Origin: Candidatus Bathyarchaeota archaeon
GTDB lineage: Archaea; Thermoproteota; Bathyarchaeia; Bathyarchaeales; Bathycorpusculaceae
DNA: 64,000 bases
Direction of reading: 5' to 3'
Assembly (NCBI GenBank): GCA_963772455.1
Contig: CAVYXJ010000009.1
Span: forward strand, 96,001-160,000
Positions 34,510 through 42,166 of this stretch are shown here, piece by piece. A model generated the notes under the pieces. That model did not search any database, was not told the origin of the DNA, and was given only the letters and a program-made list of their open reading frames with translations. The first letter of the stretch is position 1, and each line of letters opens with the position of its first letter. The translations under genes and the position numbers were made by a program.

Positions 34510-37500
34510 TTATTCAGTTGTGTTTTCGTCGTTTTCTTCTGCTTGGGGGGTTTGGTCGCTGTTGTCCGCTTCCGTTATCAGGACCGAATGCGCCTGCTGG
34601 AACGCTTCTGAAGGGTGGGACGGAATGTGTGCCTCCCTCCACCAATGAAATAGTTTCTATTGCTGGTTCTTCAAGAACTTTTTCAAGGGTAGTTTCGATT
34701 GGAACTTGCTCTGTTACTTCGAAGTCTTGGAGTGGAGCTTCAATTACGCGTTGTTCTTCGTGGGCTGCTTCTGCAATTGGCTCGGTTGCAATGATTGTTT
34801 CTGCTGGAGCTTCGACTGGTGTTTCGTTTATGGGGACTGCTTCAACTGTGAGTGCTGGGGCTTCTTCAACTGCGATTGTTGGCGGCTCGATTGGAGCTGT
34901 TTCTTCAACAACTGCTACTTGAGCTTCCTCAACGATTGCGGCTGGCACTTCAACTGGTGCTTCGATGATTGGAGTAGCTTGGATTACTTGTTCTTCGACT
35001 GCTGGCTCGATTACTGCTTCGGTTACTATTTCAACTGCTGCTTCTGGCTCAGCTGCAACTACTGGAGCCTCTTCCACTGGGGCAGCTTCTACAATTGGAG
35101 TTTCTTCAACGATTGGAACTTCAATTGCTGGAGCTTCTTCAACAATTGCTACTGGAGCTTCGACTGGTGTTTCAATTATTGGGGCTGCTTCAACAACTGG
35201 AGTTTCTATTGCTGGAGCTTCAACTATGGTTTCAACTGCTGGAGCCTCAACGATTGGGGCTTCCTCAATTGGGATAACTTCAATTGGGGCTATCTCTATT
35301 GGGGCGGCTTCTTCGACAATTGGAGCTTCAACTGGTGCAGCTTCCTCAACGATTGAGGCTGCTTCTGCGACCATTTCCACTGCTGGAGCTTCTTCAACAA
35401 CTGGTGTGCTTTCAACTACTGGAGCGGTTTCAACTGAGGCTTCAATCGTGGCTTGCTCAACTTGAGCTTCCACTGGGGCCTCTAAAGGGACCGCTGTCTC
35501 CACTGGAGCTGCTTCTGCAACTGGAGCTTCAACTGGAGCAGTTTCTATTGGAGCACACTCAATTGGAGCTGCTTCGGCTACTGGAACGGCTTCTTCTATG
35601 ATTATTGCGGGAGCTTCTTCAACAATTGCTACTGGAGCTTCGACTGGTGTTTCAATTATTGGGGCTGCTTCAACAACTGGAGTTTCTATTGCTGGAGCTT
35701 CAGCTATGGTTTCAACTGCTGGAGCCTCAACGATTGGGGCTTGCTCAATTGGGATAACTTCAATTGGGGCTATCTCTATTGGGGCGGCTTCTTCGACAAT
35801 TGGAGCTTCAACTGGTGCAGCTTCCTCAACGATTGAGGCTGCTTCTGCGACCATTTCCACTGCTGGAGCTTCTTCAACAACTGGTGTGCTTTCAACTACT
35901 GGAGCGGTTTCAACTGAGGCTTCGATCGTGGCTTGCTCAACTTGAGCTTCCACTGGGGCCTCTAAAGGGACCGCTGTCTCCACTGGAGCTGCTTCTGCAA
36001 CTGGAGCTTCAACTGGAGCAGTTTCTATTGGAGCACACTCAATTGGGGCTGCTTCGGCTACTGGAACGGCTTCTTCTATGATTATTGCGGGAGCTTCTTC
36101 AACAATTGCTACTGGAGCTTCGACTGGTGTTTCAATTATTGGGGCTGCTTCAACAACTGGAGTTTCTATTGCTGGAGCTTCAACTATGGTTTCAACTGCT
36201 GGAGCCTCAACGATTGGGGCTTGCTCAATTGGGATAACTTCAATTGGGGCTATCTCTATTGGGGCGGCTTCTTCGACAACTGGAGCTTCAACTGGTGCAG
36301 CTTCCTCAACGATTGAGGCTGCTTCTGCGACCATTTCCACTGCTGGAGCTTCTTCAACAACTGGTGTGCTTTCAACTACTGGAGCGGTTTCAACTGAGGC
36401 TTCAATCGTGGCTTGCTCAACTTGAGCTTCCACTGGGGCCTCTAAAGGGACCGCTGTCTCCACTGGAGATGCTTCTGCAACTGGAGCTTCAACTGGAGCA
36501 GTTTCTATTGGAGCACACTCAATTGGAGCTGCTTCGGCTACTGGAACGGCTTCTTCTATGATTATTGCGGGAGCTTCTTCAACAATTGCTACTGGAGCTT
36601 CGACTGGTGTTTCAATTATTGGGGCTGCTTCAACAACTGGAGTTTCTATTGCTGGAGCTTCAACTATGGTTTCAACTGCTGGAGCCTCAACAATTGGGGC
36701 TTGCTCAATTGGGATAACTTCAATTGGGGCTATCTCTATTGGGGCGGCTTCTTCGACAATTGGAGCTTCAACTGGTGCAGCTTCCTCAACGATTGAGGCT
36801 GCTTCTGCGACCATTTCCACTGCTGGAGCTTCTTCAACAACTGGTGTGCTTTCAACTACTGGAGCGGTTTCAACTGAGGCTTCAATCGTGGCTTGCTCAA
36901 CTTGAGCTTCCACTGGGGCCTCTAAAGGGACCGCTGTCTCCACTGGAGCTGCTTCTGCAACTGGAGCTTCAACTGGAGCAGTTTCTATTGGAGCACACTC
37001 AATTGGAGCTGCTTCGGCTACTGGAACGGCTTCTATTGGGGCAGTTTCAATTGGCGCTGCTTCAACTGGGCAAGTTTCTATAATTGGCGCTGTCTCAACA
37101 GGTGTAGCTTCCACGGGGACCTCTAAAGGGGCCGCTTCTACCGCCGTTGGTTGAACTGCTGGAGCTTCCATTATTGGAGCTGGTTCAGGAGCTTGAATTG
37201 TTTGGGCGCAAGGAAAAATTTGGTCAATTGCTTGTTTTATTACACCTAATTCGTTTCTTGTTGTTTCAAGTGTATTTGAGAGAAGGTTTATTTCTCGACC
37301 GTAGCTTTCCTCATCGATTTCTCCAACAACGTGTTGGATTTCATAGTTAGCGAGGAGGGTTTCTAAGGTTTTTAGTTGACCTTCTAATTCGAGGGTTTTT
37401 GCTTGCATCTTTTGAGCTAGGTCTTGTCGTTGTGTTTCGATTTCGACCATTGCTGTAGTTGATGTCGCCAGTGAAAGAGTCGCGAGTAGCTTGAGAGATT

Positions 37501-38469: not shown

Positions 38470-38547
38470 GGGTCCGTAGCTCAGTCAGGCTAGAGCATCG
38501 GACTTTTAATCCGAGGGTCGCGGGTTCAACTCCCGTCGGACCCGCCA
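38470..38547 (+). tRNA. tRNA-Lys(UUU), intron-less, CCA encoded
   Basis: Acceptor stem GGGTCCG/CGGACCC, anticodon arm TCGGA-CTTTTAA-TCCGA, T-loop GTTCAAC, 3' GCCA. Confidence 0.96.
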
Positions 38548-38578
38548 AATTATATTGGAGTAAATTTTATTTTGTGGA

Positions 38579-38824
38579 TCATTTTCTATAACCTCTTTTC
38601 GTCTGTGCTTTCTTGAGGTTAGCTTCGACTTTGGTTATCCTCTTCTCAAGTGCCGCTATTTTTTCATTCTCTTGTTTTTCGGACACTTTTTTTGCTCCTG
38701 TAAGATTGGAGACCGTACATTGTTGTAGACGCTTGCAGGAAGCGCAATGGACACGCTCTTGTCCTCGTTTTGAGGTAAAATTCATGAAGGCATCTGTAAG
38801 ATAGCTAAAATTTTTATGTTCCAT
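38579..38824 (-). CDS. Hypothetical small protein (CxxC, C-terminal coiled coil)
   Basis: 81-aa ORF inside the element; HCASC; IAALEKRITKVEANL. Confidence 0.4.
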   Translation of the reverse strand: MEHKNFSYLTDAFMNFTSKRGQERVHCASCKRLQQCTVSNLTGAKKVSEKQENEKIAALEKRITKVEANLKKAQTKRGYRK

Positions 38825-39041
38825 AAGATTGAAAAACTCATATAGAATTTCGGTTTAATGGAACAATGAGAAAACTCCCACAAGCAAGTACTTCTTTAGC
38901 AACCTAGAATTACAAATAATCAAAGAAATAGCAAAAGGAACCTGTGAATTTTCATCAATTCGCCCTTTTCTGATAGGTATTTAAAAGTTATTAACCAAAA
39001 TGGGTTAACAACATATATCTGCCTTCTACCCAGCCTACTTC

Positions 39042-39407
39042 TTGATTTTCATGCAAGCGAATAAAGTATCTAAACAACACGGGTCAAAAATCATTGTAGC
39101 TTCCAAGGTTTACCAAGTTGTGTATTGCATTGAAATTAGGTATTCTTCAGGTGAAGTATGGTGGCAAACATGGCATTTATTGAAGTGCCCTATAGTTGGG
39201 TTTAATCGTGCTGAGGCTTTACGAAGTGCTAAAGAATGGAAGGTCCAGCTTGGCGCGAAGTTCCAACCGGTGATTATTGGTGAAGATGAGGGGGATTTTG
39301 AGAGCATAGATTGCGATAATCTTTTCGGCATTAATGCCATTGGTGGATTTGATGCTGGCGAGTTCGAGTTTCCAGATTGTCTACTTGAAGAGGATGAGTG
39401 TCCATGA
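39042..39407 (+). CDS. Hypothetical protein of the integrated element
   Basis: ORF overlapping the next gene; acidic C-terminus. Confidence 0.55.
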   Translation: MIFMQANKVSKQHGSKIIVASKVYQVVYCIEIRYSSGEVWWQTWHLLKCPIVGFNRAEALRSAKEWKVQLGAKFQPVIIGEDEGDFESIDCDNLFGINAIGGFDAGEFEFPDCLLEEDECP

Positions 39408-39817
39408 AAGGACAACCTTGGACTGTTCAAGAGGAAAAGCAACTTCGCGAAATGGTTCAGGCGAAAAGAAAGCTCAATGAAATCGCCACGTTTTTTGGCA
39501 AATCTCCTGAAAGTGTCAAGAAAAAGATGAATCGTCTTAACTTGGAAGTAGTCGTCCTGCAAATTCCAAAGACGACTACTTCTAATGATTTACCAAGTGT
39601 TGAAGAAGCACTCCAGAAACTCAACGATGCGTTGGTCTCGCTGGAGACTCCTGGGCTTGATCACGCAGAGACTTTACGATTGCGTAGCATAATCCAAGGT
39701 AGGAAATTGTATATCGAGAAGTTTGCTGATTTTTTGAATTACCAGGAACTTGAGGCTCGTTTGTTTGATTTGGAGGGAAAATATGCGGCGCTTTCTAAGA
39801 AGAGCAAGAACTCTTGA
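39398..39817 (+). CDS. HTH + coiled-coil protein, candidate terminase small subunit
   Basis: PWTVQEEKQL...EIATFFGKSPESVKKKMNRL HTH; overlaps the TerL start. Confidence 0.6.
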   Translation: MSMKGQPWTVQEEKQLREMVQAKRKLNEIATFFGKSPESVKKKMNRLNLEVVVLQIPKTTTSNDLPSVEEALQKLNDALVSLETPGLDHAETLRLRSIIQGRKLYIEKFADFLNYQELEARLFDLEGKYAALSKKSKNS

Positions 39818-41231
39818 TATTAATGCCTACAGGCGGCATCGTGGAATTTTGGATAACTCAGTAGTGGAACTTGAAATTGAGCTGGCAAGTCAAGTTACAT
39901 CTTTGAGTGTTGATGTTAAGGCGTTTTTTGAGCAGATTTTCGGTTTTACTCCATTTAAGTACCAGCTTGAATTGGCAGACTTGTTTGAGAAGAATCAGTT
40001 TACTTCTGTCCGCTGGTCTCGCCAGACGGGTAAGAGTTTTTGTGTTTCGGCTTTGCTTTTAAAGTATGCATGGGATCATCCTGATAGCTATATTGCGATT
40101 GTTGGACCAAGTTTTCGGCAAACAAAATTGAATATCAGGCGGATGGGGGGTTTTGCTAGAAAGCTTCCTCAGCTACCAGGATTGCACATACAGAAGACCA
40201 GAATTACCTTGCCTAATGGCAGTACGATTGAGGCTTTTCCAAACAACCCTGACACAATCAGGGGACCAACCTTCAAAGTAATCTGGATCGAAGAAGCAAA
40301 TTTTATTCCAAATGACGAGGACCTCTATGATGCAGTTCTATTTACTCTTGGAACGACCAACGGCAAGTTGATTGCTACTTCCACGCCTTTTAATACGGAT
40401 AGTTTGTTTTGGAAAATGTGCAATCACAAAGACTTCAATGATTTTGCAAGATCTCATGTACGATGGAGCGAGGCCATGACGCCAAATGGTCCCTGGTACC
40501 CAGCAATGGTTGAGAAAATTAAACGCCAGTTCGGAGATGACCCTCAACGTTGGCGCCGAGAAATGGAAGCAGAATGGGCAGAAGACGAAGACACATGGCT
40601 ATCTCAAAGCCTAATCGTAAGCTGCATTGGCACAGAAAAGAGTTGCGAAACTGATCTGCAAGAGTTTAGCCCCGATGCAAACTATAAAGGCGACTTTTTT
40701 GCAGGATTAGATTTAGCGCAAACACGCGATTTCTGTGTACTCTCAATTGTTGAACGGTTAAATGAGAAACTATTTCTTAGGCATGTCAAAATTTTCAAGC
40801 AACCTACCCTCTACTCAACTGTTATGGGTTATCTTAAGACACTGCAGGACCGTTGGGGAGGATTTACGAAAATACGCATTGACTTCACACGGGAAGGTCC
40901 TAGTATAATTGCAGATATGACTGCTGCTGGAATTGACAATGCTGAAGGTGTGAACTTTAGTGTGCCCCGAAAAAGTGAAATGGCAAGTTTGCTTAAGCAA
41001 CGTATGTCTAATGGCGATTTCTTTTATCCCCTTCTAAGTTGGGAAAAGCCCTATCGAGGAGATATTACCGCCGAGTTAAATGTTGAACGATATGACTTGC
41101 GCAAAGATGGCTCCATAGGCTTCTCACATCCTAATGGTACACACGACGATGTCTTCTGGAGCATAGCCCTAGCAGTATACGCGACCGCAGAAATGAGTCC
41201 CGAACCATTCATAGCAGTCATCCCAAGATGA
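39783..41231 (+). CDS. Terminase large subunit (Terminase_6-like)
   Basis: FTPFKYQ, Walker A SRQTGKS, IRG, Walker B IWIEEA, STP, RREMEAEW, RNase H-like AGLDLA..RD, HDD...SIALA. Confidence 0.92.
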   Translation: MRRFLRRARTLDINAYRRHRGILDNSVVELEIELASQVTSLSVDVKAFFEQIFGFTPFKYQLELADLFEKNQFTSVRWSRQTGKSFCVSALLLKYAWDHPDSYIAIVGPSFRQTKLNIRRMGGFARKLPQLPGLHIQKTRITLPNGSTIEAFPNNPDTIRGPTFKVIWIEEANFIPNDEDLYDAVLFTLGTTNGKLIATSTPFNTDSLFWKMCNHKDFNDFARSHVRWSEAMTPNGPWYPAMVEKIKRQFGDDPQRWRREMEAEWAEDEDTWLSQSLIVSCIGTEKSCETDLQEFSPDANYKGDFFAGLDLAQTRDFCVLSIVERLNEKLFLRHVKIFKQPTLYSTVMGYLKTLQDRWGGFTKIRIDFTREGPSIIADMTAAGIDNAEGVNFSVPRKSEMASLLKQRMSNGDFFYPLLSWEKPYRGDITAELNVERYDLRKDGSIGFSHPNGTHDDVFWSIALAVYATAEMSPEPFIAVIPR

Positions 41232-41314
41232 CAAAAAATGAGAACAGGAAAACCTAATTCATATCCGAAAAACACGCTTGGCAGACGACAAGTTAACATT
41301 TCCACAATTACCAT

Positions 41315-41333
41315 TCCCGTCCGGACTCGCTCA
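41315..41333 (+). repeat. Degenerate direct repeat of the tRNA-Lys 3' end (putative attR)
   Basis: tcccgtccggactcgctca versus tRNA tcccgtcggacccgcca (38531-38547). Confidence 0.6.
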
Positions 41334-41395
41334 ATTTCGTTTCTCATTAGAGTTTTTTCCACAAGATAGAAAAAGAGAACTACAAATTTACATTT

Positions 41396-42166
41396 ATGTC
41401 AAAACCCATTTCAATCAATAAATCGCGGAATCCTGTTTGCCTATGGCTTGATGAATTAAGCACAAAAGAAGCGGAAAATGCTTCAAAAAACGGTGCAGTT
41501 GTAATTTTTCCTGTTGGGAGCGTCGAAGAGCATGGCGATCACTTACCCTTATGCACTGACAGCGTTCAACCTGAATATGTCGCGTTGGGTGTTGCTAGGA
41601 AAACCGGGTGTTTTGTGGCTCCACCGTTAAGGTATGGAATTTGCAATGCCACACGTAATTTTGCGGGAACATTAACTATTGGATTTGACACCTTTTACAA
41701 GATAGTGAATGAAATTCTCTCCGAGTTAGTTCGCAACGGTTTCAATAGAATCATTGTTCTTAGCGGTCACGCGGGAAATTCACACATGGTTGCGTTGAGG
41801 ATGGCAGCCCAAGATATCGTAATTAAAAACGAAGCTTTAGGGGCAGAAAGGAAAACTCGGATTATGGTCCTCTCAGACTACGACTTCGCAAAAGAATTAA
41901 CTCCAAAATACGCTTCAGAAAAAGATGGACATGCAGGCACATTAGAAACTTCGCGAATGATGGCCATCAAGCCTAACCTTATTAAATCAAAAGGTTCTGC
42001 AAGTTTCACAGATATGCCTCGTTTTGAAGTTGTTGCTCACCCGGAATTTTATTTCCCTAGTGGAGTCAATGGAGATCCAACGGTTTCATCTGCGGAGAAT
42101 GGCCAAAAAATAAACGATTACATCATTGATCAGGTCGTCAAACTAGTTAAGAAAATTAAAGAATAA
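41396..42166 (+). CDS. Creatininase/amidohydrolase family protein
   Basis: PVGSVEEHGDHLPLCTD, GHAGN, GHAGTLETS, SGVNGDP. Confidence 0.9.
   Translation: MSKPISINKSRNPVCLWLDELSTKEAENASKNGAVVIFPVGSVEEHGDHLPLCTDSVQPEYVALGVARKTGCFVAPPLRYGICNATRNFAGTLTIGFDTFYKIVNEILSELVRNGFNRIIVLSGHAGNSHMVALRMAAQDIVIKNEALGAERKTRIMVLSDYDFAKELTPKYASEKDGHAGTLETSRMMAIKPNLIKSKGSASFTDMPRFEVVAHPEFYFPSGVNGDPTVSSAENGQKINDYIIDQVVKLVKKIKE

Follow-up and report, generated by a model that had tools for sequence, protein, structure and literature searches.

Why would an archaeal chromosome keep an intact terminase gene pair, regarded as a hallmark of complete tailed viruses, in an insertion that holds no other intact gene? The question is raised by positions 38548-41333 of a 64,000-nucleotide stretch of a Candidatus Bathyarchaeota archaeon genome (assembly GCA_963772455.1, contig CAVYXJ010000009.1, positions 96,001 to 160,000), where a small terminase-like gene (terS) and a large terminase gene (terL) lie a short way downstream of a tRNA-Lys gene. 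The whole stretch is referred to here as the window, and the genome to which it belongs (92% complete, in 24 contigs) as G000. Comparison with relatives identifies this segment as a site-specific insertion of viral origin, and the lone terminase pair as the commonest state of this terL family in the genus, one that persists across species and also in genomes where capsid genes are not detectable.

A site-specific insertion at tRNA-Lys

The tRNA-Lys(TTT) gene (38470..38547, forward strand) is the sole tRNA called by ARAGORN in the examined DNA, and its last ~17 nt (38531..38547, forward strand), which end in an encoded CCA, form the left attachment site (attL) of the insertion. The first-pass annotation, made from the letters of the sequence, had pointed to a degenerate copy of the tRNA 3' end beyond the terL stop as an att-like boundary. 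Taken alone this match is barely above chance: positions 41315-41330 agree with 38531-38545 in 15 of 16 columns with one indel, a score of 11 where the next best among 12,769 scanning windows is 10, and the repeat is not in the top 20 of the 45 families returned by a general repeat search. The three closest relatives of G000 (G079, G067 and G075) have empty sites, in which tRNA-Lys is followed after ~63-68 bp by the start of a creatininase-family gene; these genomes match the window at 92-93% nucleotide identity over the PadR regulator and tRNA genes on the left and at 87-91% amino acid identity in the creatininase on the right. Positions 41315-41395 of the window are colinear, base for base, with the tRNA end and spacer of these empty sites, and the suspected boundary is therefore real and not a chance similarity. 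The right attachment site (attR, 41315..41333, forward strand) is, by this comparison, the decayed and displaced original 3' end of tRNA-Lys. It retains the ending found in the empty sites, and differs from the present tRNA 3' end by three mismatches and one indel over ~20 columns (one mismatch and one indel in 16). Because attR sits exactly at the empty-site junction, 38548-41333 (2.8 kb) is a true site-specific insertion at the tRNA-Lys 3' end; tRNA-targeting elements are recognised by an empty site in relatives together with the tRNA 3' end repeated directly at the two borders. Both flanks belong to the host: as assigned by Pfam, the left one encodes a PadR regulator and a CdvA-like protein, and the right one has the creatininase-family gene (41396..42166, forward strand; PF02633, E 2e-57).

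The CCA is encoded by tRNA-Lys in the window (38545-38547) and in G002, G001, G014 and G023, and is missing from the tRNA-Lys genes of the empty-site genomes G079, G067, G075 and G010 and also of G069. This distribution fits integrating elements that swap the tRNA 3' end, and since the in-place tRNA of the window ends in an encoded CCA, its 3' end would have been delivered by the element.

A search of relatives for the same cassette, proposed by the first-pass annotation, found it at the same tRNA-Lys/creatininase site in G002 and at locus L105, both with the same layout (ORF121, terS, terL, attR, creatininase; ORF, open reading frame) and an equivalent attR, and no complete provirus stands at this tRNA-Lys site in the relatives examined. 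That the element lies next to the tRNA in all carriers was ruled out, as ~7.5 kb of other genes (a beta-CASP nuclease, a P-type ATPase and membrane proteins) separate tRNA-Lys from the cassette in G002. Because attR is still present beside the creatininase gene, the whole 9.9 kb is inserted in G002. As an observation in its own right, the 3' flank of tRNA-Lys is an integration hot spot, with unrelated inserts of ~3 to >12 kb before the creatininase in five species (L024 in G002, L075 in G001, L076 in G069, L080 in G027 and L081 in G014); in five other species the site is empty or nearly so.

Within 38548-41333 only terS and terL are intact. The terL gene (39783..41231, forward strand) encodes 482 residues from its ATG, the reading frame being open from 39750 (482-493 residues), and its product matches PF03237 (Terminase_6N) at E 2.9e-17, above the cut-off, and phrog_2 at E 2.8e-38. 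The description of its ATPase and nuclease motifs as intact is borne out by alignment with 43 relatives, in which Walker A, Walker B, the C-motif and three acidic nuclease motifs are all present; these catalytic motifs are conserved across the 44 aligned TerLs, one truncated copy excepted. Matches to phrog_2 and phrog_5909 reach residue 478 and so take in the C-terminal RNase H-like nuclease. The Walker B acidic pair is E-E in the clade of the window TerL, and likewise in the provirus copies L027 and L028.

The gene upstream of terL and overlapping it (39398/39404..39817, forward strand; 137-139 residues) matches phrog_323 at E 1.7e-7, with Myb-like helix-turn-helix (HTH) matches in Pfam just below cut-off. 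Its AlphaFold2 model (mean predicted local distance difference test, pLDDT, of 80) has a three-helix HTH at residues 8-44, a linker, a helix at 66-80 and a long helix at 87-136. Compared with the PDB by Foldseek, this model had no match at E <= 0.001 (best E 0.5), and two small terminases were among the matches only at E 0.9 and 1.7. The gene lies immediately upstream of terL in 33 of 44 loci, and is the sole gene regularly linked to lone terL.

Lone cassettes across the genus

The complete genome G014 carries two proviruses of ~22 kb, with terS-terL placed after the tail genes and ahead of an ABC-type ATPase, in which Pfam recognises an HK97-type capsid protein, a cement protein, a tail tube and a gp10-like protein; an integrase beside tRNA-Leu is recognised in one of the two. 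A maximum-likelihood tree built from 44 TerLs places the window TerL and its G002 orthologue inside a five-member clade (starred in the tree), the rest of which consists of the two G014 provirus TerLs, to which the window TerL is sister, and one lone G014 copy. Because gene fragments remain at the left end of the insertion and its terL nests among provirus terLs, an origin as a deleted provirus is well supported, and the insertion derives from an integrated element of Bathyarchaeia that resembled a tailed virus. Apart from terS-terL, all that is left of this element is one small ORF under weak constraint and two fragments of genes.

The first-pass annotation had started from the premise that TerL of tailed viruses adjoins the portal gene. 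This does not hold in the present virus group, in which no portal gene is recognisable beside terL in L027, L028 and 13 other loci, the neighbours in complete proviruses being tail genes and the ABC ATPase. The latter, an ABC/SMC-like ATPase of ~480 residues, always follows terL in proviruses (L027 9440-10093, L028 9474-10913 and 13 other loci) and has weak matches to defence ATPase models (mad3 at 1.7e-11, also PtuA and LmuB). One related locus, L132, lies on a contig titled Methanocella sp. and encodes proteins 80-93% identical to those of the G014 Bathyarchaeia provirus; its terL lacks residues 1-79 and lies directly against a structural gene, and mis-binning of the contig or a deletion variant is the probable explanation.

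Across 61 genomes of the genus, G000 included, the TerL family (E <= 1e-60) occurs in 41, the G014-type capsid protein in 31 and the tube protein in 18, and five genomes at least 92% complete (G000, G010, G022, G062 and G063) have terL with neither capsid nor tube. Among 39 full-length terL loci, taken with up to ~8 kb on each side and in some cases clipped at contig ends, 27 are without any other provirus protein and lie in cellular surroundings, six are clearly proviral, and six have only the flanking 137-residue gene and/or the ABC ATPase. Among the 80 best related loci of the species collection, examined with 3-kb flanks, 35 likewise have no other provirus protein; by their titles these 80 comprise 74 Bathyarchaeota/Bathyarchaeia bins, five labelled 'uncultured archaeon' and one Methanocella. 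On the basis of this terL-centred sampling and of the genome-level tallies, the terminase appears to be kept preferentially.

In the 44-TerL tree the lone TerLs fall into four or more groups that nest among the provirus TerLs, and two of these groups contain 8 and 16 sequences. Synteny between species is seen at several lone loci, including the locus on contig C10 of G000 (with G002 and G011), a tRNA-Gly locus in G011, G002 and G000, and a further locus in clade C (G014, G023, G022 and G034). Exchange is seen in G002 and G011, where the cassettes are 96.6% identical and the flank 87%. At the C10 locus of G000, terS is near the G002 allele (dS, synonymous divergence, of 0.07) and terL is a different allele (dS 1.1), with a 318-bp piece of an old terL 3' end lying downstream (L025 10458-10866). 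This leftover fragment is 95% identical to the G002 allele, to which the resident terL is only 83% identical, and therefore terL has been replaced at this locus. C-terminal terL fragments just downstream of intact lone cassettes were observed also at L039, L043, L048, L049, L054, L143, L152 and L165. Lone cassettes have originated from provirus lineages on several occasions, with long vertical inheritance, occasional exchange or replacement, and some decay.

Substitution patterns were examined as the ratio of nonsynonymous to synonymous divergence (dN/dS), calculated pairwise by the Nei-Gojobori method, with a three-taxon split for branch values. Between the window and G002, dN/dS is 0.057 for terL (at dS 0.81) and 0.11 for terS; between the window and L105 the terL value is 0.052. 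In the three-taxon split the terL dN/dS is 0.043 along the window branch; the branches of G002 and L105, two carriers with the lone layout in common, have ~0.11 each. Elsewhere in the genus, median terL dN/dS is 0.08 and 0.10 in two clades composed entirely of lone copies (22 and 38 pairs, respectively), syntenic lone orthologues of terL give 0.05-0.14, and terS gives 0.05-0.24 in 10 of 11 lone pairs, the exception being a pair with very few changes. As judged from these ratios, terS and terL are under strong purifying selection. The suspicion that attR had decayed while the two genes stayed intact, possibly through selection, was thus well placed, and terL is not evolving neutrally. The same annotation had offered 'simply a deleted provirus' as one option; the origin so named agrees with the left-end fragments and the nesting of terL, whereas 'simply' does not agree with lone cassettes that are conserved and recurrent in the genus.

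Six host genes that flank the cassette have a dS of 1.1-2.9 between the window and G002, and two host genes compared with G079 have a dS of ~0.5. Because terL dS is below host-gene dS, the cassettes of G000 and G002 separated after their hosts did, which implies that they arrived horizontally at the same site; since the site is empty in three closer relatives, the simplest interpretation is that the cassette was gained in the lineage of G000.

Elsewhere G000 has one more intact terS-terL pair (C10:257540-259547), and terL is also present as two C-terminal fragments. Portal and capsid genes had been suggested as something to look for elsewhere in the genome, and none was detected in this 92% complete assembly: PF05065 (Phage_capsid) and PF04860 (Phage_portal) have no match, searches with the G014 capsid and tube proteins have none, and tblastn with 33 G014 provirus proteins returned no capsid, tube, baseplate or ABC-ATPase homologue. 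The last search found only terS/terL copies, an integrase fragment, one 187-residue non-structural protein and short low-complexity matches. A genome-wide search with PF00589 gave one match above cut-off, on another contig (C6), and two sub-threshold fragments. Among sequencing runs, the best DNA run contained 0.10 of the sampled words, and no RNA run was listed.

Possible roles of the cassette

The most likely role is that the cassette acts in trans on the capsids of related viruses, through hijacking, interference or transduction, and we give this reading about an even chance. Procapsids of related viruses are invoked because no capsid is encoded in the genome, and such viruses are common in the genus, with the G014-type capsid protein in 31 of the 61 genomes. 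The terminase would be retained as a still-working DNA-recognising ATPase-nuclease motor, and a related virus, infecting or resident, would supply the procapsids. The site bound by TerS would lie within terS or close to it, a hairpin in this gene being the candidate, and TerL would cut at that site and pump adjacent chromosomal DNA, including the cassette, into the foreign capsids. As an outcome the cassette and neighbouring host DNA would spread and the virus would face competition for its capsids, the beneficiary being either the cassette itself, as a satellite-like hitch-hiker, or the host, through interference or gene transfer. If the motor does act on the capsids of other viruses, it would be a minimal means of hijacking or sabotaging viruses, or of moving host DNA.

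The hairpin (39542..39585, forward strand) lies in the linker-coding part of terS and has a 15-bp stem and a 14-nt loop. Its predicted stability in RNA folding, -21 kcal/mol, corresponds to a z of -6.3, and none of 200 shuffles was equally stable. In 7 of 34 terS genes, two of them proviral, the corresponding part of the linker has a perfect stem of 10-12 bp whose sequence is different. Pieces of terS of ~70-100 nt, centred on the window-type hairpin, are also dispersed in intergenic DNA (28 matches in 11 of the 61 genomes), and a reversed control pattern had no match in the 61 genomes. Nine dispersed copies, which belong to a set including L192-L202, are found in G002. The copy at G000:C7:195194-195266 (L185 4194-4266), in the spacer between ilvD and acetolactate synthase, is also present in the orthologous spacer of G002 and G079, and one copy has changes on both sides of the stem with pairing preserved. 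The hairpin is possibly a packaging (pac) site, a terminator or a small mobile repeat. An extension of the proposed role, which we consider speculative and unlikely, is that lone cassettes and dispersed hairpin copies together make up a distributed, capsid-less packaging-initiation system in Bathyarchaeia, in which a related virus would give procapsids, chromosomal terminases would start headful packaging at these sites, and transducing particles would result. If true, this would amount to a 'split' gene transfer agent (GTA) and/or a packaging decoy that sabotages the virus, and would explain why selection preserves the terminase rather than integrase or tail genes.

Several observations weigh against the trans-acting role or the selection behind it. 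G000 is without capsid genes, and a packaging role would need viruses not seen here; the genomes of the comparison set are metagenome bins that range from 52 to 100% in completeness. No result ties the hairpin to packaging, and stems of at least 9 bp are found in only 8 of the 34 terS genes. The small gene is best called TerS-like, its predicted identity as the small terminase subunit being drawn from position, architecture and sub-threshold HTH matches. The dN/dS values are pairwise path averages, and part of the window branch (dS 0.65) may be virus time that preceded integration; for non-syntenic pairs, too, active-virus time may contribute to the ratio. Finally, 6 of the 27 lone terL genes have one in-frame stop, terL fragments are common, and the tRNA-Gly locus presents a decay series with one stop in G011, one in G002 and a 173-residue fragment left in G000. 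Stops, fragments and this series mean that retention is not universal.

Domestication by the host is the first alternative to be weighed, with the terminase turned into a capsid-independent cellular or defence nuclease-translocase that, for example, cuts invading DNA. Long vertical retention under purifying selection would be expected of such an enzyme, and the five high-quality genomes with terL and without a capsid or tube match (G000, G010, G022, G062 and G063) agree with it, as do the several divergent paralogues per genome and the allele replacement at one locus, which are reminiscent of conflict loci. However, lone TerLs interleave with provirus TerLs and share the same sequence features and motifs, no extra gene is consistently linked to them, and the PADLOC defence models include no family matching TerL, TerS or ORF121 at E <= 0.01. 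We therefore regard a domesticated nuclease as unlikely.

A neutral relic would be a recently gutted provirus in which terS-terL are merely not yet broken and the selection signal stems from active-virus time. The gene fragments at the left end, the absence of integrase and structural genes, the weak constraint on ORF121 and the stops and fragments among other lone copies are all in its favour, and 'relic' is the term favoured, in the part of their paper that deals with it, by the authors of a similar case, the element NitKor-E1 (PMC6563490). Against this, attR has already diverged while terL is free of defects, and G002 and L105, both lone at this site, have kept terL at a dN/dS of ~0.11 since their split. 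Lone cassettes that are syntenic over three to four species have ratios of 0.05-0.14 at dS values of 0.09-2.2, and lone terL is far more frequent than expected from random decay of ~22 kb proviruses, which together make a neutral relic improbable. Least credible of all, and very improbable, is an autonomous two-gene mobile element using the RNase H-like nuclease of TerL as transposase or integrase: the family is multi-copy (up to 11 matches in one genome), G015 holds near-identical copies and the G002 and G011 cassettes are far more alike than their flanks, but a transposon-like reading was rejected on the ground that lone copies cease to resemble one another in DNA outside the two ORFs and have no conserved terminal repeats or ends. 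Moreover, the duplicated tRNA 3' end at the window junction is of the kind typically left by tyrosine-integrase elements, the majority of lone copies are in synteny from one species to another and not newly placed, and the duplication in G015 takes in over 6 kb of flanking DNA, as in a segmental duplication or bin artefact.

Known systems and the remaining contents of the insertion

Phage satellites, such as the phage-inducible chromosomal islands (PICIs), are small and capsid-less, use the capsids of a helper and encode packaging-specificity proteins such as TerS; known satellites also have an integrase, a replication module and helper-sensing regulators. To our knowledge, they are generally without a terL of their own. 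The insertion is like them in being small, integrated and capsid-less and in encoding a TerS-like protein, and unlike them in possessing terL and in having no integrase, replication module or helper-responsive regulator, only the broken 5' end of a winged-HTH (wHTH) gene. GTAs, among which the GTA-like thaumarchaeal head-tail loci are included as far as they are described in PMC6563490, resemble it in that virus-derived packaging is kept under selection without att sites or replication genes. However, GTAs keep a full head-tail cluster, whereas G000 has no capsid, portal or tube gene in the searches made.

NitKor-E1, from Candidatus Nitrosopumilus koreensis AR1, has terS-terL as its only Caudoviricetes-like genes and is characterised in the section devoted to it as enigmatic and a probable relic (Krupovic et al. 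2019, PMC6563490). Like the insertion, it is an archaeal integrated element in which terS-terL are the sole viral genes (PMC6563490). Unlike the insertion, it has, by the same account, a tyrosine integrase, VapBC and a restriction endonuclease, and it is a single case (PMC6563490). The insertion, compared with it by description only, has no integrase or cargo, is one of dozens in the genus, and is accompanied by measured purifying selection and synteny. Incomplete prophages of bacteria, according to the portions of Khan and Wahl (2020, PMC7744054) that bear on gene content, lose the terminase preferentially and are enriched in integrase, transposase and tail genes. The insertion is like these remnants in being an integrated virus reduced by deletion with parts under selection, and is their opposite, on the same portions of that work, in that the terminase stays and the integrase is gone (PMC7744054).

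Literature phrase searches found no published description of lone or orphan terminase cassettes in Bathyarchaeia, and the Bathyarchaeia virus paper and the Bathy-6 genome paper, supplements aside, mention only complete viruses. PMC11697101 speaks of enrichment cultures of Bathy-6 and of proteomics. The selectively retained, recurrent lone terminase cassette has its origin in an ordinary deleted integrated virus. Its setting is an abundant uncultured archaeal group, and terL matches in archaeal metagenome bins should not be counted as proviruses.

The remaining contents of the insertion agree with the first-pass description of two small ORFs followed by an HTH/coiled-coil ORF that overlaps a full-length TerL, and also with its statement that no integrase, portal, capsid or replication gene is recognisable between the repeats: none of the four ORFs matches any such family in Pfam or PHROGs, and 38548-41333 has no tyrosine or serine integrase of its own by the same two databases. 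The first of the small ORFs, ORF81 (38579..38824, reverse strand; 81 residues), is a gene fragment whose residues 8-75 match the middle of a 349-residue protein of G010 at 53% identity, and it has no Pfam or PHROG family. The G010 gene is followed by genes for 154- and 317-residue proteins. None of these three proteins has a Pfam or PHROGs family, BLASTP of the three against the scaffold-like, cement and capsid proteins of G014 gave nothing significant, and an AlphaFold2 model of the 317-residue protein, examined for a capsid fold, had a mean pLDDT of 33.8 (five sequences), which allows no inference. Derivation of ORF81 from a head gene is a guess from gene order alone.

Next to it lies a remnant (38809..38961, forward strand) that comprises the upstream region and 5' end of a wHTH/HVO_2833_C gene and is 85% identical over 153 bp to G000:C18:17649-17801. 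On that other contig of the same genome the gene is intact (312 residues) and adjoins a primase-small-subunit-like gene; in the window a stop ends the reading frame after 13 codons. ORF121 (39042..39407, forward strand; 121 residues) has a stop that overlaps the terS ATG and no Pfam or PHROG match. Homologues occur in 3 of the 60 other genus genomes searched, always just before terS, the ORF being split in L105, and its dN/dS of 0.38-0.55 indicates weak constraint. An A/T-rich box like an archaeal TATA element (38980-38987) precedes ORF121 by ~60 nt, and 38983-39026 (44 bp) is 82% identical to the DNA upstream of terS in the lone G014 cassette L029, and may be a promoter common to both cassettes.

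Outside the insertion, the CdvA-like protein of the left flank is encoded on the reverse strand (34514-37450) and has 978 residues, with a CdvA-like coiled coil at its N-terminus. Behind the coiled coil come about four near-identical repeats of ~160 residues (~480 bp), in which Pro, Val, Glu, Ala and Ile are abundant, an extension that is unusual for a cell-division protein.

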